DNA of 64,000 nucleotides, taken from NCBI GenBank assembly GCA_046331425.1, contig JAXLQU010000013.1:24458-88457 (forward strand). The letters run 5' to 3'. Made by a program: the position numbers and the translations under genes. This document shows positions 561-26,823 of this stretch, piece by piece (the first letter of the stretch is position 1; each line of letters begins with the position of its first letter). The notes under the pieces are model-generated. The model had not been told where the DNA came from. It made no database searches and saw only the letters and a program-made list of their open reading frames with translations. The stretch is from Acidobacteriota bacterium. GTDB lineage: Bacteria > Acidobacteriota > Polarisedimenticolia > J045.

Positions 561-1595
561 TCAGCGCGGTTTCGGGCCGAACAAGTAGTGCCCCACGCGC
601 CACTGCTGTCCGTGGTCGTAGGCGAACGACTCCTCGCACCCGATGAAGAACAGCCGCCAACGTTGTACCGCGCGCTTGGCGTCGCCGGCGTTTGACGCGG
701 CTGCGAATAGGTTCGACACCTCGCGGCGTTGTTGATCCAGACGGTTTAGCCACGCACGCAGCGTCTTGGCGTAATGCTGCCCGTCTACGATCCAGCGCGC
801 CTGCAGCGTCAAGTCGTTTTGATAGTTCAAGTACAGATCATCGCTGGGCATCATCCCGCCCGAGAAAAACTCGGACGACATCCAGGCGCCATCGTCGGCA
901 TCGAAGGTGTAGAAGTAGTCGCGGTTGGTAAACACGTGCACGAACAGCCGCCCTTCAGGGGTGAGCCAGCGAGCGATGCGCGCGAACAGGGCCTCGGTGT
1001 TGCGCGTGTGCTCGAGCATTTCGATCGACACGACACGGTCGTACGTCTCGTGCGTGTCGAACTCTGCAGCGTTGGCGGTGATGACCTGCACGTTTGCGAG
1101 TTGTCGCTCGCGAGCCCGCGCCTGAATGTACTCGCGCTGGCCGTGGGAATTGGACAGCGCGGTGATCCGGGCGTTGGGATAGCGCGCCGCAGCCCACAGC
1201 GTAATCGAGCCCCACCCGCAGCCCAGATCGAAGATTCTCATCCCGTCTTCGATCTGCGCGCGCCGTGCGGTAAGGTCCAGCATCGCTTCTTCGGCGGCGC
1301 CGAGTGTGGTCACGCCGTTGGGCCAGTAACAGCACGAGTACTTTTTCATCGGGCCGAGCACCAAATGGAAGAACTCTGCCGGCACCTCGTAGTGCTGGCG
1401 ATTGGCGGCGTCGGTGTCGATTGCGATCGGGCCGCTGCGAAGCTGCGCGAGCAACGCCGCTGCCCGTTGCTGCTGCTGTTCGACGGTCCCCTGGCGCAGG
1501 TCGTTGAGCGTCTGGGCCAGCAAACGGCGAATTCCGATGCGAATCAGCGCATCGGGAATGTACCCGGCCTCTGCCCAGTCGGTGGCAAGACTCAT
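561..1595 (-). CDS. cfa: Cyclopropane-fatty-acyl-phospholipid synthase family SAM-dependent methyltransferase (mycolic acid cyclopropane synthase, CMAS, fold)
   Basis: 344 aa. SAM-binding motif IFDLGCGWGS, YDRVVSIEMLEH and FFSGGMMPS, all typical of Cfa/CMAS. Sits at the end of a conserved five-gene cluster. Confidence 0.88.
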   Translation of the reverse strand: MSLATDWAEAGYIPDALIRIGIRRLLAQTLNDLRQGTVEQQQQRAAALLAQLRSGPIAIDTDAANRQHYEVPAEFFHLVLGPMKKYSCCYWPNGVTTLGAAEEAMLDLTARRAQIEDGMRIFDLGCGWGSITLWAAARYPNARITALSNSHGQREYIQARARERQLANVQVITANAAEFDTHETYDRVVSIEMLEHTRNTEALFARIARWLTPEGRLFVHVFTNRDYFYTFDADDGAWMSSEFFSGGMMPSDDLYLNYQNDLTLQARWIVDGQHYAKTLRAWLNRLDQQRREVSNLFAAASNAGDAKRAVQRWRLFFIGCEESFAYDHGQQWRVGHYLFGPKPR

Positions 1596-1643
1596 CGGTG
1601 CGATTCTCGTTGAGGCGTCATCGTGACAACGCCGTGAGGAGGG

Positions 1644-2423
1644 TCACAACTTCGCCGCGCGCGGAAACCACGGCACGAAGATGCTGGTTGTTTGCTGGTA
1701 GCGGCGATAGGCGTCGCCGCGGCTTTCCAACATGTGCTGTTCGGTAACCGGAATGCCGGTGACCTTCCAAAGGAAGTACAGCATCAGCGCAGGGCCAAGC
1801 AGCGTGAGCCATCCCAACGGCGCGGTGATTCCAATCGCGACATAGGTAAACCAGTGCAGCCATTCGAAGAAGTAGTTGGGATGGCGCGAATAGCGCCACA
1901 GGCCGGTGTTGCAGACTTTGCCCTTGTTGGCGGGGTTGGTGCGAAACGCGTTGAGCTGCGCGTCGGCGATCGCTTCACCGAGAACGGCGGTCAGCCACAG
2001 CACGACGCCCACAGCGTCGAAGATATCCAGCGGCTCGATGCGGCGCATCGCGATGAGCATCGGCAGCGCAAACAGCACCACGGTTACAGCCTGAAACTGA
2101 TAGAAGAAAAAGAAGAAGGTCTGCGCGTTGTCTTTGTGCTGCTCGCGCAGCGTCTCGTACCGTTTGTCCTCGGGCATGGTGAGGACACGCTTCAAGATGT
2201 ACGAGCCCAGCCGAAACGACCAAATCGCGCCCAGCGTTGCTACCAGCGCACGACGCGGCTCGTAGCCGCTGCTCAGGACTCCAAAGGCGAGTGCCGTGAG
2301 CCCAATGCCGTACGGCCACGCGATGTCGACGATCGACGCGTTACCGGTAAGGCGTTGAACCAGCCACAACAGTCCGAATACGGTGATGGCGGCGAGCAGG
2401 CCGCCCAAGATCAATGTAAGCAC
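1644..2423 (-). CDS. DUF1295 family membrane protein (steroid 5-alpha-reductase / ICMT-like fold)
   Basis: 259 aa polytopic protein with RHPNYFFEWLHW and GLWRYSRHPNY motifs. These genes commonly neighbour cfa. Confidence 0.8.
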   Translation of the reverse strand: MLTLILGGLLAAITVFGLLWLVQRLTGNASIVDIAWPYGIGLTALAFGVLSSGYEPRRALVATLGAIWSFRLGSYILKRVLTMPEDKRYETLREQHKDNAQTFFFFFYQFQAVTVVLFALPMLIAMRRIEPLDIFDAVGVVLWLTAVLGEAIADAQLNAFRTNPANKGKVCNTGLWRYSRHPNYFFEWLHWFTYVAIGITAPLGWLTLLGPALMLYFLWKVTGIPVTEQHMLESRGDAYRRYQQTTSIFVPWFPRAAKL

Positions 2424-2424
2424 G

Positions 2425-2952
2425 CTAGCCTCGCGGCACTTCTTCCGTCGTGTGTGCGCCCCATCGAACCAACAGCGGCATGGCGATGGCCCAGATGAGC
2501 GCGACGAGTATCAAGCTAAGTATCGGCGACCGGCCCAACGATATCGCGCCGAGCCCAGCACCCGCAAAGTAGGAAAACGGCGCGGCGATGGCGCCGAGCG
2601 TTGCGGCGAGCACGGGCCTGCCTTTCAAGAACGAGAAACCGAACGGCACCGCGGTGGCGAACATCCCCCACAGGACCGACCACCACGGCGGCATCCAGAC
2701 ACCCGCCAACAGCGGTGTGTTGAGAGAGAGCATTCCTGCCTGGACCAACGCCAGGTCGGCAAACGGGCCGAGCAGCGCGGCAAGCACGCCGAATCGCAGC
2801 GTCGATGTGAAGCGGCCGGAAAGGATGGCGTTGATCAACAGGACAGGAACACCAGCCAGTGCGGCGGCGGTGCTCTGGCCACGAGCCGCGAGCATTGCTA
2901 CGGCGAACCAACCAAGCTGCGCCATGATGATCGACAAGACGCGGCGGATCAT
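2425..2952 (-). CDS. DUF2878 family membrane protein
   Basis: 175 aa, hydrophobic throughout. Its stop abuts the DUF1295 start (2423/2425). Standard member of cfa-associated clusters. Confidence 0.65.
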   Translation of the reverse strand: MIRRVLSIIMAQLGWFAVAMLAARGQSTAAALAGVPVLLINAILSGRFTSTLRFGVLAALLGPFADLALVQAGMLSLNTPLLAGVWMPPWWSVLWGMFATAVPFGFSFLKGRPVLAATLGAIAAPFSYFAGAGLGAISLGRSPILSLILVALIWAIAMPLLVRWGAHTTEEVPRG

Positions 2953-3074
2953 CGCGGCACTGTTTCGTCGTGCGGCCTCGTCATTGCGGCACCGTGCCGT
3001 CGTGCGCTCTGGTCATTGCAGCACCGTGCCGTCGCGCGAGCTTGTCAATGCGGCGTCTTTCGGCGTGGCTCGCA

Positions 3075-3832
3075 TCAGGAATTGCCGCGGCCAGGATGCG
3101 GAACGATCGGCACCCGCTTGATCCAGAGCTTGAGCGCTTGCCAGTGAATCGCGCCAACCACTTTGGCGGTCATCAACGGGAAACTAGCGAGGCATCCCGC
3201 CAGCGACGCGCCGGTTATCTCCCGTCGCGTGAGGGTCACCGACGATTCGAACAGAGGACCTTCGGCTTGATCACTGTCGATCTGAACCGTGAGACGCTCG
3301 CCCGGCTTGGAGACACGGAAACGATAGTTGGCCTGCAGGCTCATGAACGGCGAGACATGGAATTGCTTCTTTTGATCGAAGCGCATGAGGCCATCGGCTG
3401 GCTGCTGATGGCGAGCATCGAGTAAGTACAGATGCCGTTCGTGCCAGGGCGTGTTGTGCACCTCGGCGATGACCGCTTGCAGCTCCGTGGCGTCGGCATC
3501 GTAGAGATAGAAAAACTCACCGGGTTGAAGACATGTCCGAAGTGACGGAGGTTGGTGAGCAGGTGGACTGGGCCGGTTGGCCGGAAGCCGGCGTTCTTCT
3601 CGCAGAAATCGCGCGCGGCAACGTCGAGCGGCGTGGTGGCCTCGCCGAAATGGTCGCTGCGCTTGAAGCGAACGGGCGCGGGGCGATGTGTCGACCACAA
3701 CCATCGGCGCTTGAAGACAACGTCGAGTTCGCAAAGGTCGAGCATCGTCATGTAGACGCTGTAGGAAAACTTGTGCTCGACCGGCCGCAGTCGGCGATGG
3801 CGTACGCGGCCGACGTAGAGCGCGCTGTTCAC
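3075..3832 (-). CDS. DUF1365 family protein with a 1-nt frameshift near 3511-3520. The N-terminal part lies in the frame of ORF 3341..4495 and the C-terminal part in the frame of ORF 3075..3734.
   Basis: N-terminal segment NSALYVGRVRHRRLRPVEHKFSY...HFGHVFNPVSF and C-terminal segment FFYLYDADATELQAVIAEVHNTPWHERHLYLL...FHVSPFM lie in different frames. Adding one A to the A5 run at 3511-3515 restores NPVSFFYLYD. A GTG start at 3832 overlaps the stop of the upstream gene (GTGA). Confidence 0.7.
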
Positions 3833-5148
3833 GGAATGGACTCGGTGATGGCAGTCAGGTCGAGGCCGAAGTAGCGCGTGGCAGCCAAGGCGCTGTCGAC
3901 GCCGTCCTCGTGAAAGCCGTATTTCCAATAGGCGCCGCAGTAGTGGACACGATCGGCGCCGCTGATTTCGGCGTGACGCGCTTGCGCGGCGATTGTTTGC
4001 GGCGTGTACACCGGGTGATGGTAGCGCAGTCGTTTGAGGATCTTGCGTGGGTCGATGCGCTCTTCGCAGTTGAGCGAAACCAACAGCGGCGTCGGGCACG
4101 GGATTGCCTGCAGCAGGTTCATCCAATAGGTCACGGCCACGCGCTCCTGCGCGGCAGCCGGGACGAGGTAGTTCCAACTGGCCCAGGCGCGGCGCGAGCG
4201 CGGCATGAGCGAGGCGTCGGTGTGCAGCGTGACATCGTTGAGCTGGTACGGGATGGCGCCGAGCACCTCGCGCTCCGCTTGGGTTGGGGCACTCAACAGG
4301 GCGAGTGCTTGGTCGCTGTGTGTGGCCAGCACCACGTGATCGAACCGCTCTTCGTCGCCGTTGGCGAACGTAAGTTGCACGTGATCGGAATGGCGGGTGA
4401 CGCGCTGCACCTTGGCTGTGAGACGGATTCGCGCTTGAAACGGTGCGATCAGCGCCTGGACGTAGCGGCGCGAACCGCCCGTTATGAAGCGCCACTGCGG
4501 CGCATTACGTACGTCCAGCACGCCGTGGTGATTGAAAAAGCGCACGAAGTGTCGCGCGGGGAAGTGATTCATCATCTCGGGCGCGGCCGACCAGATCGCT
4601 GCGCCGATCGGCCGTGCGTACTGCTCGATGAACTGCGGTGAGTAGCGGCGGGCGCGGAGATAGTCGGCAAGTCCGGTCGATTCGTCGATTGCCGCGCTGT
4701 CGCTGCCAGGGTTAAGCAGTTCGTGATATTCGCGGCCGAATCGCAGGATGTCGCGCAGCAATCGCCAGAATCGCGGACGCAAGGCGTTGCTTGGTTGTGC
4801 GAATACGCCGCGCAGCGTTTCCCCACCATATTCCAGCCCGACGATCCCGCGGGTGTTGGCGCTGCGCGCGCGGTCATCGCGCACGCTGAAGCTCATCGAT
4901 GTCGCCTGCGACGCCACGCCGAGTGCTCGTAGGAGCGCGATGAAGTTCGGGTACGCGCGCTGATTGAAAACGATGAACCCCGTATCGACGACGTACTGCT
5001 GCCCCTCGACCTCGACGTCCTGCGTGTGCGTGTGCCCGCCCACGTAATCATTCGCCTCGAAAACGGCCAGATCGTGCCGCGCCGCCAACACCCGCGCCGC
5101 CACCAACCCCGAGATCCCCGTCCCCACCACCGCCACCCTCATCCACAC
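3829..5148 (-). CDS. NAD(P)/FAD-dependent oxidoreductase (amine oxidase-like flavoprotein of the cfa cluster)
   Basis: 439 aa. N-terminal Rossmann motif VAVVGTGISGLVAA. Conserved first gene of amine-oxidase/DUF1365/cfa clusters. Confidence 0.85.
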   Translation of the reverse strand: MWMRVAVVGTGISGLVAARVLAARHDLAVFEANDYVGGHTHTQDVEVEGQQYVVDTGFIVFNQRAYPNFIALLRALGVASQATSMSFSVRDDRARSANTRGIVGLEYGGETLRGVFAQPSNALRPRFWRLLRDILRFGREYHELLNPGSDSAAIDESTGLADYLRARRYSPQFIEQYARPIGAAIWSAAPEMMNHFPARHFVRFFNHHGVLDVRNAPQWRFITGGSRRYVQALIAPFQARIRLTAKVQRVTRHSDHVQLTFANGDEERFDHVVLATHSDQALALLSAPTQAEREVLGAIPYQLNDVTLHTDASLMPRSRRAWASWNYLVPAAAQERVAVTYWMNLLQAIPCPTPLLVSLNCEERIDPRKILKRLRYHHPVYTPQTIAAQARHAEISGADRVHYCGAYWKYGFHEDGVDSALAATRYFGLDLTAITESIP

Positions 5149-5476: not shown

Positions 5477-6682
5477 ATGACTCAGACGCAGAAGTTTATC
5501 GAGCAAGAAGAACGGTACGGGGCGCACAACTATCACCCGCTGGATGTGGTGCTCACCAAAGGACAAGGGGCGTGGGTGTGGGACGTCGAGGGGCGCAAAT
5601 ACCTCGACTGCCTGGCTGCTTATAGTGCGGTGAATCAAGGCCACAACCATCCGCGGCTGGTCAAGGCGCTCAAAGATCAACTCGACAAGTTGGCGCTTAC
5701 GTCGCGCGCGTTTCGCAACGATCAACTCGGCGCGTTCTGCGAGGAGCTGTCGAAGGTCTGCGGGTTGCCGCGCGTGCTGCCGATGAATAGCGGCGCCGAA
5801 GCGGTGGAGACCGCGATCAAGGCGGTGCGCAAGTGGGGCTACACACTGAAGAAGGTCAAAGACGGCAAGGCCGATGTCATCGTGGCCGATGACAACTTCC
5901 ACGGCCGCACCATCACCATCGTCGGCTTCAGCAGCGAGGCGCAGTATCGCTCGGGGTTCGGGCCGTTCGCGCCCGGCTTCACCAGCGTGCTCTTCGGCGA
6001 TGCCAACGCGGTAGAGCGCGCGATCACACCCAACACGGTCGCCGTGTTGATCGAGCCGGTGCAGGGCGAAGCGGGAATCATCATTCCGCCGGCCGGTTAC
6101 CTGAAACAGTTGCGCGAGATCTGCACACGACATCGCGTGCTGTTGATCCTTGATGAAATTCAGTCGGGGTTGGGTCGCACGGGAAAGATGTTTGCGCACC
6201 ATCACCATGGAATTGCGCCCGACGGACTGATCGTCGGCAAGGCGCTGTCGGGTGGTTTGTATCCGGTCTCGGCCTTCGTGGCCACCGACGAAATCATGGA
6301 TGTGTTCAAGCCCGGCGATCACGGCTCGACCTACGGCGGCAACCCGCTGGCCGCGGCGGTCGCGCGCGAAGCGTTGCGCGTGTTGGTCGACGAGGGCTTG
6401 GTGGAAAACAGCGCCGCGATGGGACAACGCCTGCGCGACGGCATCATGAGCCTGCCTCGCACCAAGCTCGACAAGATCAAGCAGCTTCGGCAGATCGGCT
6501 TGTGGATTGGCCTGGAGTTGAAGCACGAGTTGGGCGGTGCGCGCCCTTACTGCGTGTCGCTGATGCAGCGCGGCATGCTGTGCAAGGACACTCACAAGCA
6601 CACCATTCGCTTGGCCCCGCCATTGGTGGTAACCGCTTCGGAGGTCGATTGGGCGGTCGAGCAGTTGGCCGCTGTGCTGTAG
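5477..6682 (+). CDS. rocD: Ornithine--oxo-acid aminotransferase (class III PLP-dependent aminotransferase)
   Basis: 401 aa. OAT-type sequence throughout: N-terminal EERYGAHNYHPL, DEIQSGLGRTG, PLP-lysine context LIVGKALSGG. Confidence 0.85.
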   Translation: MTQTQKFIEQEERYGAHNYHPLDVVLTKGQGAWVWDVEGRKYLDCLAAYSAVNQGHNHPRLVKALKDQLDKLALTSRAFRNDQLGAFCEELSKVCGLPRVLPMNSGAEAVETAIKAVRKWGYTLKKVKDGKADVIVADDNFHGRTITIVGFSSEAQYRSGFGPFAPGFTSVLFGDANAVERAITPNTVAVLIEPVQGEAGIIIPPAGYLKQLREICTRHRVLLILDEIQSGLGRTGKMFAHHHHGIAPDGLIVGKALSGGLYPVSAFVATDEIMDVFKPGDHGSTYGGNPLAAAVAREALRVLVDEGLVENSAAMGQRLRDGIMSLPRTKLDKIKQLRQIGLWIGLELKHELGGARPYCVSLMQRGMLCKDTHKHTIRLAPPLVVTASEVDWAVEQLAAVL

Positions 6683-6748
6683 CGATTTTCTGCACGCCGG
6701 CCGCAGCGAGGCTTTGGCGCATGCGGCTAGCAACGTAGAATTCGGCGC

Positions 6749-7678
6749 ATGAACACACGTGTCGTGCTTCAGGCTCGATGCAGCTCGTCGCGGCTGCCAG
6801 GCAAGGTGTTGCTGCCTGTCGCAGGGATGCCGTCGGTGGTGTTGTCGGCCAAACGCGCGGCGACGTCGGGGTTGGATGTGTTGATGGCCACCTCCACCGA
6901 TCCTAGCGACGATCACTTGGTGGATGTCGTGAAGAGCGCCGGCTTTCCTGTGATGCGTGGCCCGCTCGACGACGTCTTGCTGCGGTACGTCATGGCCACC
7001 GAAGATCTGGACGACGACGACATTGTGGTGCGATTGACTGCCGACAACGTGGTGCCCGACGGTCCGTATATCGACACGCTGATTGCAGCGTTGCACAAGC
7101 GCGAGGAGCCGTACCTCGGGCCGAGCCATCCTGCCGACGGAATGCCGCATGGTCTGTCGGTGGAAGTATTCACCGCGCGCGCATTGCGTGAGGCTGATCG
7201 ACTGACGCCGCGTCCTGAAGATCGCGAGCACGTCACGCCGTTCTTGCGCCGACGCTACGCCAAAGCGGTGTTTCGCCCCGAGTGGGCGGGCGATTTGTCA
7301 TCGGCGCACTTGGGATGCACGGTCGACACGCGTGCCGACTACGAGCGTGTCGCGCGCTTGATGGAAGGCGTGCGCAACCCACTGACCGCTTCGGCGAAGG
7401 AACTCTGCGTGCGCCTCGCCGTGCAGGAAGAGTTGGTGTTGTGTACCGCGTTCGTTGAATCGCTCAGCGATGCCGCGGCCGAGGCCGCACTGCAATCCGC
7501 GATCGACGAAGGTGTCGTGCAGTTCGTCGTGCACCCCGACCACACGCGCACGCAACAACTGCTCGCGCGCCTGCTCGCCCAGCGCTACGAAGGCCACTCC
7601 TTCATCCGCGTCACCGACGCCACCGACGTCCCCCCCGAAGCGCTAATCCGGGGACGGTTTACCTATTACTTCCGATAG
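6749..7678 (+). CDS. Cytidylyltransferase (CTP_transf_3; SpsF/PseF-like CMP-nonulosonate synthetase candidate). Its C-terminus runs into the MITE TIR.
   Basis: N-terminal VLQARCSSSRLPGKVLLPVAGMP, typical of SpsF/FlmC/PseF-like acylneuraminate cytidylyltransferases. The last ~12 codons (EALIRGRFTYYFR) are encoded by the inverted repeat at 7645-7668. Confidence 0.65.
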   Translation: MNTRVVLQARCSSSRLPGKVLLPVAGMPSVVLSAKRAATSGLDVLMATSTDPSDDHLVDVVKSAGFPVMRGPLDDVLLRYVMATEDLDDDDIVVRLTADNVVPDGPYIDTLIAALHKREEPYLGPSHPADGMPHGLSVEVFTARALREADRLTPRPEDREHVTPFLRRRYAKAVFRPEWAGDLSSAHLGCTVDTRADYERVARLMEGVRNPLTASAKELCVRLAVQEELVLCTAFVESLSDAAAEAALQSAIDEGVVQFVVHPDHTRTQQLLARLLAQRYEGHSFIRVTDATDVPPEALIRGRFTYYFR

Positions 7679-7841
7679 CGCGCGCGCCTGTCACAGCGCG
7701 TAGCTCCATGGCCGGGTGAAGCGTGGTTCGGCCCCGCAGCGAGGCCGGCCGGCGCATCGCCTCGCGCGCCTCCCGCCACCCTCCCTCCCCCGTCCGGCTT
7801 ACCAACGCGCAGCCCTGCTTTAGGTAGACCGTCCCCGAATT
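7645..7841. repeat. MITE-like element, copy 2 (197 bp) with ~24-bp terminal inverted repeats
   Basis: 7645-7668 aatccggggacggtttacctatta. 7818-7841 ctttaggtagaccgtccccgaatt is its reverse complement. Same TIR family as 5218-5345; the internal sequence is only partly related. Confidence 0.7.
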
Positions 7842-7882
7842 GGGCGGATGGCTTTGGACTAGGGCGGAACTTAGGTTGGAGG

Positions 7883-9073
7883 GTGCGGAGGACTGTGAGC
7901 GTGGCGCGGAAGACGCTGGGGTATGGGCGGCAACTCGTTGATGAGGAAGACGTTGCGGCGGTGGTCGAGGTGCTGCGCGGCGACTCGCTGACCTGCGGGC
8001 CGGCGATCGAGGCGTTCGAGCGGGCCCTGGCGGACACCTGCGGAGCCCGGCACGTGGTCGCGGTCAGCAACGGGACCTCGGCGCTACGCCTTATATATCG
8101 TGTCGCCGGGGTGGGGCCCGGCACCCGGGTCGGCGTCCCGGCCATCACCTTCGCCGCCACCGCCACGCAGGCGCTCGCACTCGGCGCCGAGGTGGTGCTG
8201 CTGGACGTCGATCCCACCACGCTGCTCCTCACCCCCGAAATCCTCGACGCCTGCCGCGAGCCTCTCGACTTCGTCGTGCCGGTGCACATGGCGGGACGTC
8301 TGTGCGACATGCAGGCGCTGGCCGACATCGCGCAACGCCGCGGTATCACGTTGCTCGAAGACGCCGCGCACGCACTCGGCTCGACACTCATCGATGGCAC
8401 ACGCTGCGGCGATCTAGCTTTCAGTCGCGGCGCAACGTTCAGCTTTCATCCGGTGAAGAACATCACCACTGCTGAAGGCGGCGCCGTGGCCGTCAACGAC
8501 GATGCGTGGGCCGCGCGGCTGAAGAGCCTGCGCCACCACGGTGTCGCACGCGACTCATTCCACGGCACGCTCGCCGCGCACGATGGCGGCGCCCCTTGGT
8601 ATCACGAGTTTCACGACATCTCCGGCAATGATCGCCTCTCCGACCTGCACGCCGCACTCGGCCTCTCGCAGCTTCGAAAGCTCGCGCGATTCAAAGCCGA
8701 ACGCGCCAACATTCATCAGCGCTATTGCGATGCGTTCTCCGCGCTCGATGGCGTAACGCTGCCGCCCGCCGCTCCGGGTCAACTCCCCTGCTGGCATCTG
8801 TTCCAACTACAACTCGACTGGAAGCAACTACAAATCACGCGCCGCGAGTTCTTCGCGCGCGCCGCCGCCGATGGGCTGCAGCTTCAAGTGCACTACATCC
8901 CGCTGCATCACCAACCGGTGCTGGCCTCATGCGCGCGCGCAAGCTCACTAGCCGGCGCCGACCACGCCTACCAACGATTGGTCACGCTCCCCTGCTTCCC
9001 CGGCTTTACCAGCTCACAACACTCGCACGTCATCGACTTCATCCTCTCGCTGTGCGAAAGGGTCACGGCATGA
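7883..9073 (+). CDS. pseC: UDP-4-amino-4,6-dideoxy-N-acetyl-beta-L-altrosamine transaminase (DegT/DnrJ/EryC1 family)
   Basis: 396 aa. N-terminal LGYGRQLVDEEDVAAVVEVLRGDSLTCGPAIEAFE, typical of PseC/DegT. PLP-lysine context SFHPVKNITTAEGG. An alternative GTG start at 7895 follows GGAGGA. Confidence 0.85.
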   Translation: MRRTVSVARKTLGYGRQLVDEEDVAAVVEVLRGDSLTCGPAIEAFERALADTCGARHVVAVSNGTSALRLIYRVAGVGPGTRVGVPAITFAATATQALALGAEVVLLDVDPTTLLLTPEILDACREPLDFVVPVHMAGRLCDMQALADIAQRRGITLLEDAAHALGSTLIDGTRCGDLAFSRGATFSFHPVKNITTAEGGAVAVNDDAWAARLKSLRHHGVARDSFHGTLAAHDGGAPWYHEFHDISGNDRLSDLHAALGLSQLRKLARFKAERANIHQRYCDAFSALDGVTLPPAAPGQLPCWHLFQLQLDWKQLQITRREFFARAAADGLQLQVHYIPLHHQPVLASCARASSLAGADHAYQRLVTLPCFPGFTSSQHSHVIDFILSLCERVTA

Positions 9074-10137
9074 GCTCCTCCTCGAAGCCACTCGACAACA
9101 AGACCGTGCTGATCACCGGCGGCACCGGTTCGTTCGGCCGCGCCTTCCTCCGCATGGCGCTCACCGAACAATCGCCGCGCAAGCTCATCGTCTTCTCGCG
9201 CGACGAGTGCAAGCAGTGGGAGATGCAGCAGCAAGACCCGCTGTTTCGCGACGAGCGGCTGCGCTACTTTCTGGGCGACGTGCGCGACAGCGACCGCCTG
9301 CTGCGCGCCTTCCGCGACGTCGATTACGTGGTGCACGCCGCCGCACTGAAGCACGTGCCCGCCGCCGAATACAACCCCACCGAGTTCATCAAAACCAACA
9401 TCCACGGCGCGATGAACGTTATCGACGCCGCACTCGATCGCAACGTCGAGAAAGTGATTGCACTCTCCACCGACAAAGCCACCAACCCAATCAATCTCTA
9501 CGGCGCCACCAAGTTGTGCAGCGATAAGCTGTTCGTGCACGGCAACGCCTACAGCGGCGCACATCCGCGCCCCTCGTTCGCCGTGGTGCGCTACGGCAAT
9601 GTGCTCGGCTCGCGCGGCAGCATCGTGCAGCACTGGAAGGCCAAGCTCGACGCCGGAGAACGCGAGCTGCCGCTCACCGACCCACGCATGACACGCTTTT
9701 GGATCACCCTCGACGACGCGGTGCGATTCACGATCAACGCCTTCAGCCAAATGCTCGGCGGCGAGATCTTCGTGCCGCGCATCCCCAGCATGTCGCTCAC
9801 CGATCTCGGCCGCGCGATCGACCCCACCGCCCGTTTCAAAGAGATCGGCATTCGCCCCGGTGAAAAGCTGCACGAGCTTCTGATAGGCGAAGACGACGCG
9901 CGGCGCACGCTGCGCTTCGACAAGCACTACGTGATTGCCCCCGAAGGACTCGGCGAACGATTCGCCACACTCGCCACGCTGCAACAATCCGGCGGCGTTC
10001 GTCTTCCCGACGGCTTCGAGTACAGCTCCGACAAGAACGACGAATGGCTCGACACCGCCGCGTTGCGACGCTTGCTCGAGCACTCCGGCGCACTCGACCA
10101 CACCAACGCGGTGCCGACAGCACGATGCGCGCCCTGA
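9070..10137 (+). CDS. pseB: UDP-N-acetylglucosamine 4,6-dehydratase (inverting), PseB/FlaA1 family
   Basis: 355 aa. TGGTGSFG Rossmann motif, YGATKLCSDKLF catalytic motif, FSRDECKQWEM. ATG 9070 overlaps the pseC stop (ATGA). Confidence 0.88.
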   Translation: MSSSSKPLDNKTVLITGGTGSFGRAFLRMALTEQSPRKLIVFSRDECKQWEMQQQDPLFRDERLRYFLGDVRDSDRLLRAFRDVDYVVHAAALKHVPAAEYNPTEFIKTNIHGAMNVIDAALDRNVEKVIALSTDKATNPINLYGATKLCSDKLFVHGNAYSGAHPRPSFAVVRYGNVLGSRGSIVQHWKAKLDAGERELPLTDPRMTRFWITLDDAVRFTINAFSQMLGGEIFVPRIPSMSLTDLGRAIDPTARFKEIGIRPGEKLHELLIGEDDARRTLRFDKHYVIAPEGLGERFATLATLQQSGGVRLPDGFEYSSDKNDEWLDTAALRRLLEHSGALDHTNAVPTARCAP

Positions 10138-11086
10138 TTCGATGCGATGCCGGCCGCGAACTCGACTCGGCCACGCGATGCGCTGCCGCACCCTGGCGTC
10201 GTCGCTCAAAGCCTCCGGTTGGCAGGTCGACTGGGCCTGCCGCGCCTCAGCCGAACTGCTGCAAGTGCTCGGCCGCCACCCCGATCTGTCGCTCCCCGGC
10301 GAGCCATCGTTCGCGCCGCTCCCCAGCAGCGAAGCCGAGGCACTCGGCAACTTCGCGCGCGGCGCCGAGTGGGTTGTCGTCGATCACTACGGTGCCGATA
10401 CCGCGTGGCTCACGCGCCTGCGCGAGGCAGGCCGCGGCGCGCAGATCTTGCTGCTGGACGATCATCAAACGCGCGACGGCGCCGACCTACGACTCGCGCC
10501 AATGCAGCCACACTCACCGCACACTCTGTCGGGCCTCGAGTACCTGATGCTGCGCGCGCCGTTCTGCGGCATGCGCAATCACCCCGCGCAGCCTCGGAGC
10601 GGCTTCGTGATTTGCATCGGCGGCACTGACCCGCAGCACCTCACTCGCGCCGCGGTAGAACAACTGATCACGCTTGGCGGGCAACTCCCCGAACTCACCG
10701 TGCTCAGCGGCGACACGCTCCTGGATAGTCTGCTCACGCGCTGGCCCGTTCCCGCGCGGCGCCACACGTGGCTCGATGCCGATCCTCTTGCACGCCTGCT
10801 TGCACAGACACAAGCAGCGCTGGTCGCCACATCGGGAGTTGCCTTCGAGGCGTTGGCAATGGGCACGCCAATCGTCGGCTTGCAGTGGGCGGACAATCAA
10901 ACGCAACACGCGCAGCGTTTGTTGGAAGCCGGTATTCCTGTCACGCCAAACGTGCAGATGTCGGCCACACTCCTGCATCGTGGTTGTGCGGTGGCGGCGC
11001 GCCTCTCCGATGGCGGCGGCGTCAAACGCGTGGTGCAAGCGATGACGGCACACGTCGAGGTGACCAAGACATGGGCCTCGCGCTAA
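10125..11086 (+). CDS. pseG: UDP-2,4-diacetamido-2,4,6-trideoxy-beta-L-altropyranose hydrolase PseG (GT28-like) with a 1-nt frameshift near 10173-10177
   Basis: N-terminal MRALIRCDAGRELDS is in frame 0 (ATG 10125, overlapping the pseB end). GHAMRCRTLASSLKASGWQVDW and the rest (...GIGGTDPQH...ALAMGTPIVG) are in the frame of ORF 9935..11086. One extra G in the GG run near 10175 would join them. Confidence 0.7.
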
Positions 11087-11733
11087 CGATCCTCAGCGAT
11101 GCGGGCCACTGGCTCGAGCCGGCGTTGGAAACGCTGGCCGACGAGTGGCGCGCGCAAGGGCACACCGTGCGACGCGTGCATACCGCCGCTGCACTCCCGC
11201 ACGGCGATCTGTGCTTCATGCTCGGCTGCGGGCAAATCGTGTCGCCCGAGCTGCTCGCGCATCACACACACAACTTGGTGACACACGAAAGCGCGCTGCC
11301 GCATGGGCGCGGATGGTCGCCGTTGACGTGGCAGGTCTTGGAAGGCCAACGGCAGATCCCCGTCGTGCTGTTTGAAGCGGCGCCACGCGTGGACGAAGGG
11401 CCGATCTATCTGCGCACCACCATCGCGCTCAACGGCAACGAGCTCGTCGATGAACTTCGCGCCGCACAAACCCAAGCCACCTTCTCGCTGTGCCGCGAGT
11501 TCGTCGCCAAGTACCCTGAGGTCCTGAGCCACGCCCAAGCGCAGAACGGCGTCCCCTCGCGCTACCCACGACGAATCCCGGCAACCAGCGAGCTTTTCCT
11601 CGACCAAACACTGGAAGAAGCGTTCGACCTGCTACGCGTCTGCGACCCAGAGCGATACCCCGCCTTCTTCGATCGCGACGGCCAGCGCTACTACCTGACG
11701 CTCAGCAAGGAGCCTCCATGCCGCAGCCGCTGA
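11071..11733 (+). CDS. Sugar N-formyltransferase-like protein (Formyl_trans_N domain only), sitting where pseH normally lies
   Basis: 220 aa. HESALPHGRGWSPLTWQVLEG matches the formyltransferase HxSLLPxxRG core (FMT/PurN/ArnA-N/WbtJ-like). Its start overlaps the pseG end by 16 nt. Confidence 0.65.
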   Translation: MGLALTILSDAGHWLEPALETLADEWRAQGHTVRRVHTAAALPHGDLCFMLGCGQIVSPELLAHHTHNLVTHESALPHGRGWSPLTWQVLEGQRQIPVVLFEAAPRVDEGPIYLRTTIALNGNELVDELRAAQTQATFSLCREFVAKYPEVLSHAQAQNGVPSRYPRRIPATSELFLDQTLEEAFDLLRVCDPERYPAFFDRDGQRYYLTLSKEPPCRSR

Positions 11734-12887
11734 TGATCGAGTCGCGGCCAATCGGTGCCGGGCATCCTGCGTTGATCGTTGCGGAGTTGTCGGCCAATCA
11801 CGGCGGCAGTCTCGATCGCGCGCTCGAGTTGGTTCGATTGGCGCACGACGCCGGCGCCGACGCAATCAAATTGCAAACCTATCGCCCCGACACCATGACA
11901 ATCGATTGCACTGCGCCGTGGTTTCGCGTGCAGGGCGGCTTGTGGCACGGCCGCACACTGTGGGACTTGTACACCGAAGCGCACACGCCGTGGGAATGGC
12001 ACGAGCCGTTGTTCGCCGAAGCGCGACGCTGCGGCCTGCTCGCCTTCAGCACACCGTTCGATGCCACGTCGGTCGACTTCTTGGAGCGCTTCAACTTGCC
12101 CTGCTACAAGATCGCCAGCTTCGAAGTCGGTGATTTACCGCTGCTCGAGCGTGTCGCTGAAACGAAGCGGCCCGTAATAGTCAGCACCGGCATGGCGTCG
12201 CTCGATGAAATCGAGCAAGCGGTCGCGACATTGCGAAACGGTGGCTGCCCCAACGTGATTCTGCTGAGCTGCGTCTCTGCCTACCCTGCCGAACCGCGTG
12301 ACTTCAAGCTGCGCAACCTGCCAATGCTCGCCGATCGGTTTGATGTTCACGCAGGACTCTCCGATCACAGCAGCGGATCGCTGGTCGCCGTGACCGCCAC
12401 CGCGCTCGGCGCCCGCGTGATCGAGAAGCACTTCTGTCGCCGGCGCAGCGACGGTGGCCCCGATGCCGCATTCAGCGCCGAACCCGAGGAGTTTGCCGAT
12501 CTCGTGCGTGCCGTGCGCAACACTGAATCGATGCTTCAGCCGAGCAGACTCGGTCCGTCATTGGCGGAAGAAGGAAGCTTGGTGTTTCGCCGCTCGCTGT
12601 TTGCGGTGCGCGACATTGCGCCGGGCGAGTTGTTCACCAGCGAGAACGTGCGCGTGATCCGCCCCGGATTTGGCCTGCCTCCGGGCGATCTGCCGCGCGT
12701 CCTGGGAAGAACCGCCGCGACCGCGCTCCAACGCGGAACCCCGCTCGCTTGGGAGCATGTGTCGGGCCGCGATCGCCGCGACGACGCTCACGGTGTCGTT
12801 GCGGGCACTACCAACGCTGCCAGTGCGAGCGCCGGCACAAGCGGCGACCTCGCCATCAACTCCCGCGGTTGGTCATCACGTCGATGA
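11718..12887 (+). CDS. pseI: Pseudaminic acid synthase (NeuB family) with an unusual low-complexity C-terminal tail
   Basis: 389 aa. ALIVAELSANHGGSLDRALELVRLAHDAGADAIKLQTY and the SAF-like C-terminal region are as in NeuB/PseI. About 45 extra residues at the C-terminus (…DRRDDAHGVVAGTTNAASASAGTSGDLAINSRGWSSRR). Confidence 0.88.
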   Translation: MPQPLMIESRPIGAGHPALIVAELSANHGGSLDRALELVRLAHDAGADAIKLQTYRPDTMTIDCTAPWFRVQGGLWHGRTLWDLYTEAHTPWEWHEPLFAEARRCGLLAFSTPFDATSVDFLERFNLPCYKIASFEVGDLPLLERVAETKRPVIVSTGMASLDEIEQAVATLRNGGCPNVILLSCVSAYPAEPRDFKLRNLPMLADRFDVHAGLSDHSSGSLVAVTATALGARVIEKHFCRRRSDGGPDAAFSAEPEEFADLVRAVRNTESMLQPSRLGPSLAEEGSLVFRRSLFAVRDIAPGELFTSENVRVIRPGFGLPPGDLPRVLGRTAATALQRGTPLAWEHVSGRDRRDDAHGVVAGTTNAASASAGTSGDLAINSRGWSSRR

Positions 12888-13564
12888 GCGACGTTCTCAT
12901 CTTCGGCGCGCAGCGCGACATCATGCTGCCTGCGTTTCATGCGCTCACCGCTAACATACCCTGCGTGTTGGTGCGCCGCCCCGAAGATCTCTCCATTGCG
13001 TTGCTCGAGCGCGTCAAACCGCGCCTGGTGGTGCTCCCCGACTGGAGTTGGATCGTCCCCGACGATCTACTCGCGCGCGCAACCTTCATCGGCTTCCACG
13101 CTTCCGCCCTGCCCGACTACCGCGGCGGCTCGCCGTTGCAACATCAAATCTTGGACGGCCTCAACGAAACCAAGCTGACGATGTTTCGCATGGCCGCCGG
13201 TCTCGACAACGGACCGATCCTGCTCGATGCACCGCTCTCGCTGGCTGGCACCATCAGCGAGATCTGGCAGCGCATCGCCGCGTTGGTGCCACCAATGGTG
13301 ACCCGCTTGCTTCACGGCGATGTCGAGGAGAAACCCCAACCAATCGGCGGCTTCGTGCGCAAGCGCCGCACCCCCGATCAAAGCGAACTGACCGACCCCG
13401 CGCTGTCGCTCTCGCGTTGGTACGACATGCTTCGTGCGCTCGACGACCCCTACCCCAACGCGTTCGTGCGCGTTGGCGGCAAGCGAATCGCGTTCCGCAA
13501 GCCGCGCCTCAGCGGCGACGCGCTGATCGCCGAAGCAGTCATTCGCGAGGAGCCGTCGAAATGA
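12884..13564 (+). CDS. Second formyltransferase-domain protein (Formyl_trans_N-like)
   Basis: 226 aa. HASALPDYRGGSPLQHQILDG is again the formyltransferase core. It is a paralogue of 11071..11733. ATG 12884 overlaps the pseI stop (ATGA). Confidence 0.6.
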   Translation: MSDVLIFGAQRDIMLPAFHALTANIPCVLVRRPEDLSIALLERVKPRLVVLPDWSWIVPDDLLARATFIGFHASALPDYRGGSPLQHQILDGLNETKLTMFRMAAGLDNGPILLDAPLSLAGTISEIWQRIAALVPPMVTRLLHGDVEEKPQPIGGFVRKRRTPDQSELTDPALSLSRWYDMLRALDDPYPNAFVRVGGKRIAFRKPRLSGDALIAEAVIREEPSK

Positions 13565-14298
13565 TCCACTCGCACGGACCGGTGCTGGTGATTGCCGCGC
13601 ATCCCGACGACGAAGTGCTCGGCTGCGGCGGCACCATCGCGCGCCTCGCTGCCGAGGGGCGCGATGTACAGATTGCGATTTTGGTGGAGGGGCTCACCTC
13701 TCGCGATGATCAACGCGACGCCGCCAAGCACGCAGCCGCACTGGCCGAGCTGCGCGCCACCGCGCAGCGTGTCGCCACATCGCTCGGCGCGCGAGCACTT
13801 CACACCTTCGGCCTCCCCGACAACCGGCTCGACACCGTACCGATGCTCGATGTCGTCAAGATCTGCGAATCACTGATCGAGACGATTCAACCCAGCGTGA
13901 TCTTCACGCACCACGCCGGCGATTTGAACGTCGATCACCGCGTCATTTCGCAAGCGGTGCTCACCGCAACACGGCCGATTGCCTCGCGCCCTGTACTGCA
14001 GGTGATCGCCTTCGAAGTGGCCAGCAGCACCGAGTGGTCGTTCCAACAGATAGCGCCACCATTCAGCCCCAACCTGTTCGTCGACATCGCCGCCACGCTC
14101 CCGCAGAAGATCGCCGCGATGAAGGCGTACGACGGCGAGTACCGCCCGTTCCCTCACCCGCGATCTGCCGAAGCGCTCGAAGCGCAAGCCAAGCGCTGGG
14201 GATCGACCGCGGGCCTGATGGCGGCTGAGGCGTTTCAGATTGTGCGCTCGATTGTTCGATGTGAAGTGCTGGCGTCTGCTGCGAGCAACCAGAGTTGA
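13561..14298 (+). CDS. PIG-L/LmbE family N-acetyl-sugar deacetylase
   Basis: 245 aa. VLVIAAHPDDEVLGCGGTIA and HHAGDLNVDHR are the PIG-L zinc-site motifs. ATG 13561 overlaps the previous stop (ATGA). Confidence 0.8.
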   Translation: MIHSHGPVLVIAAHPDDEVLGCGGTIARLAAEGRDVQIAILVEGLTSRDDQRDAAKHAAALAELRATAQRVATSLGARALHTFGLPDNRLDTVPMLDVVKICESLIETIQPSVIFTHHAGDLNVDHRVISQAVLTATRPIASRPVLQVIAFEVASSTEWSFQQIAPPFSPNLFVDIAATLPQKIAAMKAYDGEYRPFPHPRSAEALEAQAKRWGSTAGLMAAEAFQIVRSIVRCEVLASAASNQS

Positions 14299-15014: not shown

Positions 15015-15473
15015 ATGCGTCTTGAAACGGAAGATGGCCTCTCACTCGAGCTTCGAATTCTCGGCTATCAGTTTCCAGACATGCGAACCAACAGTCAGGA
15101 CTCGAACTGGCTCATCATCGAGGGCGAGGTCGCGCATCCGCGCGGCGCCTGGACGTTCCGCGATCCTTGCCTGCTCGCTTACGAGGTGTCCCGACTCGCT
15201 GACTGGCTTGGTTCGCTCGCGCGCGGGACACCCACCTCGGGCGAGAAGAGTTTCATGGAGCCGAACATCAGCTTCAGGTCGGTGGAATCGCCGACGGGGC
15301 CCAACGTTCGCGTTTACTTCGAACTGGAGGCCCGCCCGCCTTGGGCCCCGTCGGACGTCGTGGATGAGGAACAGTGCTGGATCGATTTCCCGGTTTCCGA
15401 GTTGGAGCTCCACAGAGCTGCACTCTCCCTGCTCGATCAGCTGAAGAAATACCCGCAGAGAGCGGCGCAATAA
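15015..15473 (+). CDS. Hypothetical protein (152 aa)
   Basis: ORF with plausible start. No recognised domain. Confidence 0.4.
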   Translation: MRLETEDGLSLELRILGYQFPDMRTNSQDSNWLIIEGEVAHPRGAWTFRDPCLLAYEVSRLADWLGSLARGTPTSGEKSFMEPNISFRSVESPTGPNVRVYFELEARPPWAPSDVVDEEQCWIDFPVSELELHRAALSLLDQLKKYPQRAAQ

Positions 15474-21099: not shown

Positions 21100-22460
21100 T
21101 CCTGCTGATATCCGTGGGTTGGTTACCACCTTACTTGTTTCCGTCGGACGCCTGCCTCGCTCTAGGCACGAGGGTTGGCCGAAGCTGCCTCTCAACGCGT
21201 TCGAGGATTGCGTCAAACCGGGGCCGCGCCTCTCGCTCATCCCTGCTGCTCCGTTCCATTCACTGCCTCACGCTGCAATCGGAACTTGTTTTGCGATCGC
21301 CCACATGTATGCCAGCATCTCGCGCGCGATCGCGGTCACCACGACGTTGGGATGCTTGCCGCCACTGATCAGTCGTCGATATCGTTTGCAGAGTCTCAAC
21401 TGCGCCTTCCATGCGATCGCATGGATCGGCTTTGGAAGTGAATCGATCCGCTTCTGAATGTGCTCGGAGACCTTGGCTGGATAGCGATAAGCCCAGGCCC
21501 CTTCCGTCAGCACACGTTGTACGCGTGAATTGCCCATCTTGGTGTTCCCGCCTTGTCGTCGCCTCTGACCGCTGGAGTGCTCGCTAGGGATCAAGCCGAC
21601 AAACGCCGCCAGTTGTCGCGGCGAGTCGAAGCGCGTCAGATCACCAATCTCGGCGACAGTGGTGACGGCCACGGTCTGTTGGACGCCACGCAGTGCCATC
21701 AACGATTGCACCACCGGATTCAATCGCCAGGTGGGGAGTTGCTCGACCAACTCAGCCTCTAGTCGTTTCAATCGCTCGATCTGCTCGTCGACGGCACGCA
21801 GCATTTCTTGGTACACGATCTGTTGAACCGGCGTGGGGCAAACGACTCGCGCCAAGTAGCGCAGATGCGCTTCATTCCAGCGAGCTTTGCCGGTGTAGTT
21901 CAAACCCAGGCGCAGCAGAAATGACTTCAGTCGACGCCTGGCATTCTTGAGATCGCTCAGCGTCGCCTCGCGGGCGCGTGAGAGATCGCGCATCGCCTCA
22001 TCGTGAACTGACGGCACATAGATCGAGGTGAGATCGCCCGATCGCGCCAAGCGCGCGAGCTCGGTAGCATCGTGCCGGTCGGTCTTGACTCGATCGCCAG
22101 ATTTCTTTGGAATCAGCGAAGGCGCGATCACGCGGCATTCGAAGTTCTTGCCCGTGAGGTAGCGATAGAGCACGTAGCCGCAAGGCCCGGCCTCGTAGAC
22201 AAACACCAACGTCGAGGCCTTGGACTGCAGCCTCCGAATCAGCTTGTCGATGTCGCACTGCCGCGTGCCGATCTGACCGACGAACAGCACCTCGGTCCAC
22301 GGATCGCTCGGGGTATAGGCCACAGCAATCTGATCTTTGTGAACGTCCAAACCGACGAACATCGTGGTAGTTTTCTGCATGGCCGACGTCCGGGATTCAC
22401 CAGTGGCAAACAAACGAGCGTGCGGCTCTGATCTCGATGAGACTAGCCCGCGATTGGTAC
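21100..22460 (-). mobile_element. IS110-family insertion sequence. Ends are approximate because this family has no clear TIRs.
   Basis: Contains a complete IS110/DEDD transposase gene. A partial second copy of its first ~45 codons occurs at 26684-26823. Confidence 0.6.
21268..22380 (-). CDS. IS110 family transposase
   Basis: [22 protein letters not shown] (DEDD_Tnp_IS110 N-terminus) and a C-terminal Transposase_20 region (…[19 protein letters not shown]…). The track ORF extends to 22476 but the family start [11 protein letters not shown] is at about 22380. Confidence 0.85.
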
Positions 22461-22563
22461 CGGGGTCGGCTTGCATCGCTTCCCGAAGTCAGCTTTTCTA
22501 GACGGCAAATAAGTCGTCTTTTAGTTCGAAGGCGGTCACTTTCGTAACGGGAAGGCCTATCAC

Positions 22564-25947: not shown

Positions 25948-26234
25948 GGCTATCGGCGAATGGCCGACCCATCCTGCAAGAAATGCGCTTTGGCTTTGGT
26001 GTGATGGCGAGGCCGAGAATGCAGCAACCGTACAGCAGCGATGTTGGACTCTTCCGAGTGCCGCTTTCGTTGACCCTGCGAGGGCACGCCTGGGCGGCGA
26101 GCATGCACTCTGTTGGGGTGTTCGAGAAATCAGGGGAGCTTCCATCCTCCTGGGAAATTACGGATGGGACGCTGCACTTACGCTACGGTCGGCGTCGCCG
26201 CTGGATCGCAGTTTGAGTGGTGCAGGAGGTGCTC

Positions 26235-26582: not shown

Positions 26583-26683
26583 CGAGTGCAGCGCAGCGGA
26601 ATCTAGCGCAGGTCGGACTCGCCTTCAGCGCCAGTCGTGCTGGTGGTTATCGACGGGGCAATCACCTAGCGCGCGAACTCCTT

Positions 26684-26823
26684 TCATGTGAGGCACCAGT
26701 TGAGCAGGCCGCTGCTCTGGCCGAAGAGCACTGCCTCGGCCCCTGGATTGCGCGCGATGGAGACCACCGCGATCTGTGCGTTGCGAAAATCACAACCGAC
26801 AAACCCGTGGTAGTTTTCTGCAC
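26684..26823 (-). pseudogene. Degenerate N-terminal fragment of an IS110-family transposase gene (second, truncated copy)
   Basis: The minus strand reads GTGCAGAAAACTACCACG (16/18 nt identical to the first six codons, MQKTTT, of 21268..22380). With one frameshift it continues FVGCDFRNAQIAVVSIARNPGAEAVLFGQSSG, aligning to [31 protein letters not shown]. It is cut off after ~45 codons. Confidence 0.55.

Follow-up and report, generated by a model that had tools for sequence, protein, structure and literature searches.

Which acyl groups are carried by a pseudaminic acid (Pse) that is made without the usual acetyltransferase PseH? The question is raised by an operon of eight plus-strand genes at positions 6749-14298 of a 64-kb stretch of Acidobacteriota DNA, hereafter called the window. 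In order, the genes encode a cytidylyltransferase, PseC, PseB, PseG, a formyltransferase-fold protein (FT1), PseI, a second formyltransferase-fold protein (FT2) and an N-deacetylase of the PIG-L/LmbE family (LmbE). We consider the chances about even that this operon makes a cytidine monophosphate (CMP)-activated Pse bearing formyl, not acetyl, on both amines (CMP-Pse5Fo7Fo). Comparison with related loci revealed that the operon is a member of a widespread cassette and no peculiarity of this genome.

Gene content of the operon

Genes were called from the open reading frame (ORF) listing with inspection of the start codons, and the window proteins were scanned with the Pfam and NCBIfam hidden Markov models (HMMs). 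An earlier note, made from the sequence alone, had listed the same eight genes, and the scans confirmed each of them at its position (Table 1), with E-values ranging from 1e-8 to 1e-143 across the operon genes, far beyond chance. PseB and PseI exceed the NCBI equivalog cut-offs, and the PseC and PseG models give the best NCBIfam matches for their own ORFs. Related loci and assemblies used for comparison carry L-numbers. In L001, a near-identical contig from a different read set, the GTG start of pseC is called identically, and the intact PseG scores 124.5 bits with TIGR03590, likewise under the 153.55 cut-off and with no other NCBIfam match. The formyltransferase-fold protein described between pseG and pseI, as well as the second formyltransferase-fold gene and the LmbE gene described after pseI, were also recovered: both FT1 and FT2 score above the Formyl_trans_N cut-off and the deacetylase matches PF02585. 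The LmbE protein contains the metal-binding motif AAHPDDE at residues 13-19, and its nearest NCBIfam models, BshB1 and BshB2, score far under their cut-offs.

The absence of PseH, also claimed in the earlier note, was borne out for the operon and for the 64-kb window. No PseH-like GNAT acetyltransferase was found in the operon, and a six-frame search of the window with the HMM of the cluster-associated GNAT gave no match. Pfam scans of selected window ORFs revealed one GNAT, which was rejected as a displaced PseH: it has no TIGR03585 match and sits among unrelated small genes.

The cytidylyltransferase had been labelled PseF-like, a label that does not hold. The protein is of the SpsF type (CTP_transf_3) and gave no match to TIGR03584 PseF in the NCBIfam scan. 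Across the related loci, SpsF-type enzymes occur in 28 and canonical PseF in 37, and both together in only 1. Because of this near mutual exclusion, the SpsF-type cytidylyltransferase is likely the CMP-pseudaminic acid synthetase of this operon.

Fold and active site of FT1 and FT2

For FT1 and FT2 alike, NCBI lists proteins of 100% identity whose sole annotation is "formyltransferase family protein". Their AlphaFold2 models have pLDDT values of 91.5 and 95.5, respectively. The closest structures to the FT1 model by Foldseek are the HypX N-domain, the PDB entry 1ZGH, Rv3404c, WbkC and ArnA, with TMq values of 0.66-0.80, and the E-values of the FT1 and FT2 models against these five structures range from 1e-13 to 7e-23. 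The two proteins can therefore be confidently modelled with the formyltransferase fold. By sequence, 1ZGH is the best PDB match of both, with E-values of 3.8e-31 for FT2 and 3.9e-10 for FT1 (2.3e-17 with the FT1 family profile), and the FT2 model superposes on it with a TM-score of 0.91, a root-mean-square deviation of 1.9 Å and 29% identity. Profile-profile comparison of FT1 against FT2 with hhalign yields a probability of 99.7, an E-value of 1.2e-26 and 29% identity, indicating sister families.

Alignment of the two families revealed a strongly conserved active site. The residues His72 and Asp108 are invariant in both families; Ser74 is likewise invariant in the FT1 family, with Ser or Thr at this place among FT2 relatives. 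Together they match the His/Ser/Asp triad known from transferases that use N10-formyl-tetrahydrofolate (N10-formyl-THF) (PMC6802093). In addition, the LPxGRG(W/G)SP loop is conserved in both families, and the folate-site motifs HxSxLPxGRG and DxG are invariant. Neither protein has the canonical Asn that precedes the catalytic His by two residues (Asn102 in ArnA); FT1 has Val70 there and FT2 has Gly70. The same holds family-wide: all FT1 relatives have Val, and FT2 relatives have Gly, Cys or Val. Another asparagine, Asn68, four residues before the His, is nearly invariant in the FT1 family. Thus, of the Asn/His/Asp residues that the earlier note had proposed to look for, His and Asp are conserved, together with Ser, and Asn is not. 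The missing Asn is not disqualifying, since the hydrolase domain of 10-formyl-THF dehydrogenase (FDH) uses 10-formyl-THF with an Ile at this position.

The earlier note had likened the two proteins to WbtJ, WlaRD and the ArnA N-domain, to which they turned out not to be close. FT1 and FT2 share with the sugar N-formyltransferases ArnA (N-domain), WbkC, VioF, Rv3404c, WbtJ and WlaRD the two-subdomain fold, the catalytic His and Asp, an HxSLLPxxRG-type loop and an RRxPxxS motif in the C-terminal subdomain. However, the identity is 15-23%, the Asn-x-His of the ArnA-type enzymes is Val-x-His in FT1 and Gly-x-His in FT2, and the N-terminal half is shorter, with the His at residue 72 instead of about 104 as in ArnA. 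1ZGH, a structural genomics entry from Clostridium thermocellum, has the compact fold of FT2 and the same absence of Asn, although its N terminus extends about 32 residues further. Judged from these alignments, FT1, FT2 and 1ZGH constitute a separate, uncharacterised subfamily, and the lack of Asn is a real departure from the ArnA/WbkC/VioF-type enzymes.

Gene combinations in related genomes

The distribution of the cassette was surveyed with FT1 as the anchor, which introduces a selection bias. A genome collection with one genome per species was scanned by pattern, FT1 relatives were then confirmed by the encoded protein, and 80 loci were annotated with the window proteins as queries. More than 800 FT1 relatives were found in the protein collection and 402 confirmed places in the species-representative genomes. 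The carriers include many bacterial lineages and some archaea (methanogens), and PseB, PseC and PseI are adjacent in most of the annotated loci.

Combinations of genes were counted in the 63 loci where FT1 is flanked by 4 kb or more in each direction, none of which was found to carry a canonical PseH. The layout of the window, FT1 with FT2 and LmbE but without a GNAT, is more frequent than any other (20 of 63 loci) and occurs in many bacterial lineages; cultured carriers are Moorena bouillonii, Fodinibius roseus DSM 21986 and Desulforamulus aquiferis. FT1 and GNAT occur together with both FT2 and LmbE in 12 loci, with LmbE in another 12 and by themselves in 3; FT1 with LmbE only is found in 8 loci. 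In the remaining 8, a class whose carriers include Cohnella abietis and Paenibacillus eucommiae, FT1 is the sole N-acyltransferase and no deacetylase is present. FT1 is thus without LmbE in 11 of 63 loci, whereas LmbE accompanies FT2 in 32 of 32 sufficiently flanked loci and in 35 of 36 overall. FT2 lies beside LmbE in 20 of 35 loci, and in the window the two genes are joined by an ATGA overlap.

FT1 is often joined to PseG. As many as 38 of the 80 FT1 ORFs are PseG-FT1 fusions, and in further loci FT1 directly follows PseG. About half of the fusions contain a GNAT domain between PseG and FT1, which scores 25-27 bits with the NCBIfam PseH model (cut-off 93). Such tri-domain PseG-GNAT-FT1 proteins of 720-790 residues were seen in L027 (8453-10651), L028 (8465-10651, Methanospirillum purgamenti), L025, L043 and others, including methanogenic archaea; they hold an acetyltransferase-type and a formyltransferase-type domain in one chain, for which a simple model has no explanation. 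With these proteins in view, the idea that FT1 simply replaces PseH everywhere was rejected as too simple. FT2 was in turn rejected as the PseH substitute, as FT2 is never seen in the flanked loci without LmbE and FT1 is.

A search starting from FT2 revealed clusters without FT1 that have PseB, PseC, PseI and LmbE and in which FT2 is fused to a GNAT or adjoins one. One of these adjoins an MptE/Maf-like gene, and another FT2 locus lies amid flagellin, FliD and FliS genes. Further features of the related clusters were recorded. A protein of about 630 residues, in which tetratricopeptide repeats (TPR) precede what looks by eye like an O-GlcNAc-transferase-like region (GT41-type), is encoded next to the Pse cassette in L011 (3212-5107), and 27 related loci have ORFs like it. 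The protein is a candidate pseudaminyltransferase, and no counterpart was found in the window. In L088, a CotH-family kinase-like gene (6052-7944) lies between the cytidylyltransferase and PseI in a cluster with a GNAT-FT2 fusion. Several related clusters contain further N-modifying genes, namely ATP-grasp proteins, a WbpG-like amidotransferase with HisH/F, and GNATs.

Proposed pathway and alternative explanations

Based on the gene content, we propose a pathway for the operon. The gene identities, the fold, the conserved His/Ser/Asp residues and the gene co-occurrence are observed; the formyl donor, the amine served by each transferase, the sequence of steps and the resulting sugar are inferred from them. 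PseB and PseC would convert UDP-GlcNAc to UDP-4-amino-4,6-dideoxy-beta-L-AltNAc. FT1, in place of PseH, would transfer a formyl group from N10-formyl-THF to the 4-amino group, the future N7. Upon removal of UDP by PseG, the sugar would be condensed with phosphoenolpyruvate by PseI, and the CMP sugar would be formed by the SpsF-type cytidylyltransferase. At a stage that the sequence does not fix, LmbE would remove the GlcNAc-derived acetyl group (the future N5), and FT2 would place a formyl group onto the amine thus freed. The most economical model for the whole cassette would be that either a GNAT acetylates or FT1 formylates the amine made by PseC, that the GlcNAc acetyl stays unless LmbE takes it off, and that FT2 formylates the amine freed in this way.

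The assignment of each enzyme to its amine follows from the gene combinations. FT1 would serve the PseC-made amine because it follows or is fused to PseG (38 of 80) and is the sole N-acyltransferase in 8 of 63 loci. FT2 would serve the amine freed by LmbE because of the strict co-occurrence of the two. The target of LmbE would be the GlcNAc-derived acetyl group because, in the clusters without FT1, undoing the product of the adjacent GNAT would be futile. By this association, 1ZGH, which was deposited as a methionyl-tRNA formyltransferase, probably acts as an N-formyltransferase on nonulosonic acids rather than on tRNA. More broadly, and with somewhat less than even confidence, we suggest that FT1, FT2 and 1ZGH are Asn-less nonulosonic-acid formyltransferases which, together with LmbE, make up a modular N-editing system (FT1 at N7, LmbE plus FT2 at N5) in many phyla and in methanogens, the product here being 5,7-di-N-formyl-pseudaminic acid.

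N7 formylation and an exchange of the N5 acyl group had both been suggested in the earlier note. The gene co-occurrence fits them, while several observations weigh against them. The canonical Asn is absent from both transferases. A GNAT is found next to FT1 in 27 of 63 loci, which the simple model does not explain; 12 loci hold GNAT, FT1, FT2 and LmbE, that is, three transferases for two amines, and the 3 loci with GNAT and FT1 but no deacetylase are likewise left without explanation. In clusters with the unexplained GNAT, N5 might instead be the site at which FT1 acts. As the view is of 64 kb, the genome may also encode a PseH outside it. Neither glycosyltransferase nor Maf nor flagellin genes were found among the window ORFs scanned, and we know of no description of a di-N-formyl pseudaminic acid. 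In addition, pseG is broken in this copy, and if the break is real the pathway is blocked here.

The break is a frameshift at the start of the gene. The N-terminal sequence MRALIRCDAGRELD (ATG at 10125) is out of frame with the remainder, which begins LGHAMRCRTLA, since one G is absent at about 10165, immediately 5' of the GxGH motif. The extra G is present in three related assemblies (L001, L008 and L009), giving an intact PseG of 322 residues. L001 differs from the window by 6 substitutions and 1 indel over 3970 bases, and 5 of the 6 substitutions and the indel cluster within 48 bp at the pseB/pseG junction (about 10117-10165). As a result, the window has lost the ATGA junction between pseB and pseG that L001 retains, its PseB is longer by 5 residues and its pseG frame is shifted. 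A real frameshift would mean that the operon is decaying in this genome and that no finished pseudaminic acid is made. The deletion with its five neighbouring substitutions, the intact sequence in three relatives, the lack of a transferase or acceptor gene nearby and an IS110 transposase 7 kb downstream would be consistent with decay, but the remaining genes are intact and keep their overlapping start/stop junctions, pseG is intact in the near-identical contig of another read set, and differences packed so closely together are what consensus or strain-mixing errors typically leave in a metagenome-assembled genome. We regard decay as a rather improbable explanation; because L001 is intact and L008 and L009 also have the extra G, the frameshift is probably an artefact of consensus building or strain mixing.

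The other alternatives concern the chemistry. It may be that only one formyl group is installed: FT1 would give Pse5Ac7Fo, as the known enzyme PseJ does, LmbE would expose a free N5 amine, and FT2 would act on another acceptor or on part of the pool, so that the cell would contain Pse5Ac7Fo, Pse5N7Fo or a mixture. LmbE occurs without FT2 in 20 of 63 loci, so that formylation need not follow deacetylation, and the CMP-nonulosonic acids of Kuenenia carry one formyl group and one free amine; the other N-modifying genes in several related clusters (ATP-grasp, the WbpG-like amidotransferase with HisH/F, and GNATs) point in the same direction. Such a product is nevertheless unlikely for this operon in our view, given the strict and often adjacent pairing of FT2 with LmbE, the ATGA overlap between their genes in the window and the lack of any further N-acyl-forming enzyme in the operon. 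Less probable again is that FT1 and FT2 share only the fold and are not sugar N-formyltransferases using N10-formyl-THF, but rather carry out other chemistry such as hydrolysis, use another acyl or one-carbon donor or stand as non-catalytic partners beside PseG, the N7 acyl group coming from an enzyme encoded elsewhere. The family-wide lack of the canonical Asn would suit this possibility, as would the absence of a known function for the nearest solved relative 1ZGH, the presence of HypX, which formylates a thiol rather than a sugar amine, among the closest structures of the FT1 model, and the co-occurrence or fusion of FT1 with GNAT in many loci. It is opposed by the invariant His, Ser and Asp and the invariant folate-site motifs, by profile matches to ArnA and sugar N-formyltransferases that span both subdomains, by the FT1-only clusters, near which no alternative acyltransferase was found, and by FDH, in which 10-formyl-THF chemistry proceeds without the Asn.

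Formylation could also be transient, as with ArnA and ArnD in the biosynthesis of 4-amino-4-deoxy-L-arabinose (Ara4N) for lipid A. FT1 would then pull the reversible transamination by PseC, and LmbE would later remove the formyl group as a deformylase. That LmbE accompanies FT1 in 52 of 63 loci would agree with this logic, by which the ArnA/ArnD pathway works, yet FT2 would be left without a role, and 11 of 63 FT1 loci have no LmbE. The clusters with LmbE, FT2 and GNAT but no FT1 disfavour a deformylase in particular, as it would there undo the work of FT2. We therefore find transient formylation very improbable.

Comparison with known systems

The operon shares with the canonical PseB-PseC-PseH-PseG-PseI-PseF pathway of Campylobacter and Helicobacter the PseB and PseI equivalogs, PseC and PseG as best matches and the order of the chemistry. 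It differs in the absence of PseH, in an SpsF-type enzyme in place of TIGR03584 PseF and in the addition of two formyltransferase-fold genes and a deacetylase.

A formyltransferase in the role of PseH has a precedent in PseJ of Anoxybacillus kamchatkensis, which belongs to a 7-formamido Pse pathway leading to CMP-Pse5Ac7Fo (Reimer et al. 2018, ACS Chem Biol 13:3161, as cited in PMC11040635). PseJ is a formyltransferase-fold enzyme of a Pse cluster that stands in for PseH and formylates the UDP-4-amino sugar (PMC11040635), as proposed here for FT1. The presence of fmt genes and the absence of pseH in the flagellin-glycosylation islands of Geobacillus were noted in 2016 (PMC5109656). With PseJ, a formyltransferase in place of PseH is already established, and the finding is less new than the earlier note implied. 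PseJ, whose structures are PDB 6CI2-6CI5 and 6EDK, also has a short N-terminal half like FT1, with an alignment starting from residue ~5. Nevertheless, the two are remote: the match has an E-value of 0.007 when FT1 alone is the query and of 1.8e-7 when its family profile is used, and PseJ is absent from the top 50 Foldseek structural matches of the FT1 model. For FT2, no match to PseJ (6CI2) was found at E <= 0.01. PseJ has 192 residues and its match ends near residue 143; the C-terminal subdomain of FT1 and FT2 (Formyl_trans_C_2) has no aligned counterpart in PseJ.

Candidatus Kuenenia stuttgartiensis contains the CMP-nonulosonic acids with one formyl group and one free amine mentioned above, and its cluster has a deacetylase and a formyltransferase (SugarBase preprint, bioRxiv 10.64898/2026.04.20.719630). 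Similar to the window, these two genes lie in a 5,7-diamino-nonulosonic acid cluster, with editing at the nucleotide-sugar level; the Kuenenia cluster is Leg-type with one formyltransferase, whereas the operon in the window is Pse-type with two. Our literature searches on formyltransferases and deacetylases in nonulosonic acid clusters found only this 2026 preprint, and those on a role of LmbE or another deacetylase in Pse biosynthesis found nothing relevant. As far as these searches show, the Asn-less FT1/FT2/1ZGH clade, the strict coupling of FT2 to LmbE and the breadth of the cassette have not been described.

Organization of the operon and its surroundings

Table 1. Features of the operon and of the remaining window (profile scores in bits; cut-offs in brackets).
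Feature	Position	Strand	Profile match or remark
Lipid-modification-type cluster	561-5148	-	
Ornithine--oxo-acid transaminase	5477-6682		TIGR01885 504.8 (equivalog 378.4)
SpsF-type cytidylyltransferase, 309 aa	6749-7678	+	Pfam CTP_transf_3 61.5 over residues 5-172
C-terminal extension of the cytidylyltransferase, ~130 aa	7270-7678	+	resembles start of aldo/keto-reductase
Conserved non-coding stretch directly 5' of pseC	7812-7900	+	near-identity to L009
PseC-type aminotransferase, 390 aa, GTG start	7901-9073	+	DegT_DnrJ_EryC1 312.8; TIGR03588 367.7 (under 423.5)
PseB, inverting UDP-GlcNAc 4,6-dehydratase, 355 aa	9070-10137	+	TIGR03589 477.1 (407.75)
pseG, UDP-sugar hydrolase, frameshifted in the window	10125-11086	+	TIGR03590 100.8, downstream frame (153.55)
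FT1, compact formyltransferase-fold protein, 220 aa, at usual pseH position	11071-11733	+	Formyl_trans_N 34.1 (26.1)
PseI, pseudaminic acid synthase, 389 aa	11718-12887	+	TIGR03586 445.9 (340.25), match to residue 343
Low-complexity tail of PseI, ~40 residues	about 12750-12884	+	
FT2, second compact formyltransferase-fold protein, 226 aa	12884-13564	+	Formyl_trans_N 41.9 (26.1); Formyl_trans_C_2 30.9
LmbE, PIG-L/LmbE-family metal-dependent N-deacetylase, 245 aa, final operon gene	13561-14298	+	PF02585 93.8 (28.2)
WapI-like immunity gene	15015-15473		
IS110-family transposase	21268-22476		
Run of small "detoxification"-type genes, all on one strand	25375-39181		
GNAT	34278-34751		

The earlier note had described the operon as a chain of 4-nt overlaps. 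This holds for three of the seven junctions, pseC/pseB, pseI/FT2 and FT2/lmbE, which are ATGA overlaps. The overlap is 16 nt long at the pseG/FT1 and FT1/pseI junctions and 13 nt long at pseB/pseG, and a spacer of about 220 nt separates the cytidylyltransferase gene from pseC. Within this spacer, the ~90 nt directly 5' of pseC are almost identical in L009, an Acidobacteriota locus with an FT1 of 79% identity, and the remainder is poorly conserved. No sigma-70 promoter or terminator consensus was found in the conserved stretch, which by its conservation is possibly a promoter or 5' leader. A regulatory RNA in the spacer was rejected, as an Rfam search of the 220 nt gave no match.

Two of the encoded proteins are extended at the C terminus. 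The last ~130 residues of the cytidylyltransferase resemble the start of an aldo/keto-reductase (AKR) without its catalytic residues, and the extension looks like a degenerate AKR remnant. Relatives of the enzyme are fused to an AKR in L053 (6010-7650) and to a class-III aminotransferase in L021 (6790-8949) and L037 (6851-8956), and a complete AKR is fused to a relative in Methanospirillum; L009 carries a cytidylyltransferase of the same form as the window, with 317 residues. The trio of CTP_transf_3, AKR and aminotransferase is present in the Pse clusters of other genomes. The class-III aminotransferase gene directly upstream of the operon was rejected as a gene of the Pse module, as it scores above the equivalog cut-off for ornithine--oxo-acid transaminase. 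The unusual C-terminal tail of PseI reported in the earlier note proved to be real, extending ~40 low-complexity residues past the canonical end. It recurs in independent assemblies, with a PseI of 389 residues in L005 and a matching end in L007, and is poorly conserved in L009. Most simply, the tail is an extension of the ORF across a former spacer.

The genes upstream of the transaminase form a conserved-looking cluster of the lipid-modification type that encodes a cyclopropane-fatty-acyl synthase-like methyltransferase, DUF1295, DUF2878 and DUF1365 proteins and a flavin amine oxidase-like protein. The gap between the transaminase gene and the operon contains a hairpin resembling a terminator and a site resembling a promoter, neither of them above chance. 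The region 3' of the operon contains small unknown genes, a WapI-like immunity protein and an IS110 transposase, all unrelated to Pse; no obvious toxin partner was found near the immunity gene. The "detoxification"-type run further downstream comprises glyoxalase/bleomycin-resistance folds, DUF1801, YceI, DUF4256, GNAT, GFA and DinB genes. The GC content in the window is 0.58-0.66, with 0.64-0.66 in the operon and lower values (~0.58-0.60) 3' of it.

Significance for pseudaminic acid biosynthesis

Pseudaminic acids decorate flagella, pili, capsules and S-layers, and charge, antigenicity and recognition by phages are determined by their N-acyl groups. To our knowledge, PseJ is the only characterised enzyme that installs a formyl group on pseudaminic acids, and we know of no Pse-pathway enzyme by which the N5 acetyl group is edited. 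The operon offers three clonable candidates for these activities: FT1 as a putative N7 formyltransferase of a new subfamily, LmbE as a putative N5 deacetylase and FT2 as a putative N5 formyltransferase. In addition, a function is suggested for 1ZGH, an orphan structure for 20 years. The proposal extends known biology and introduces no new principle. If it is true, it would account for the nonulosonic acids with formyl groups and free amines that recent surveys of nucleotide sugars have turned up, and it would provide enzymes for the chemoenzymatic synthesis of Pse variants.

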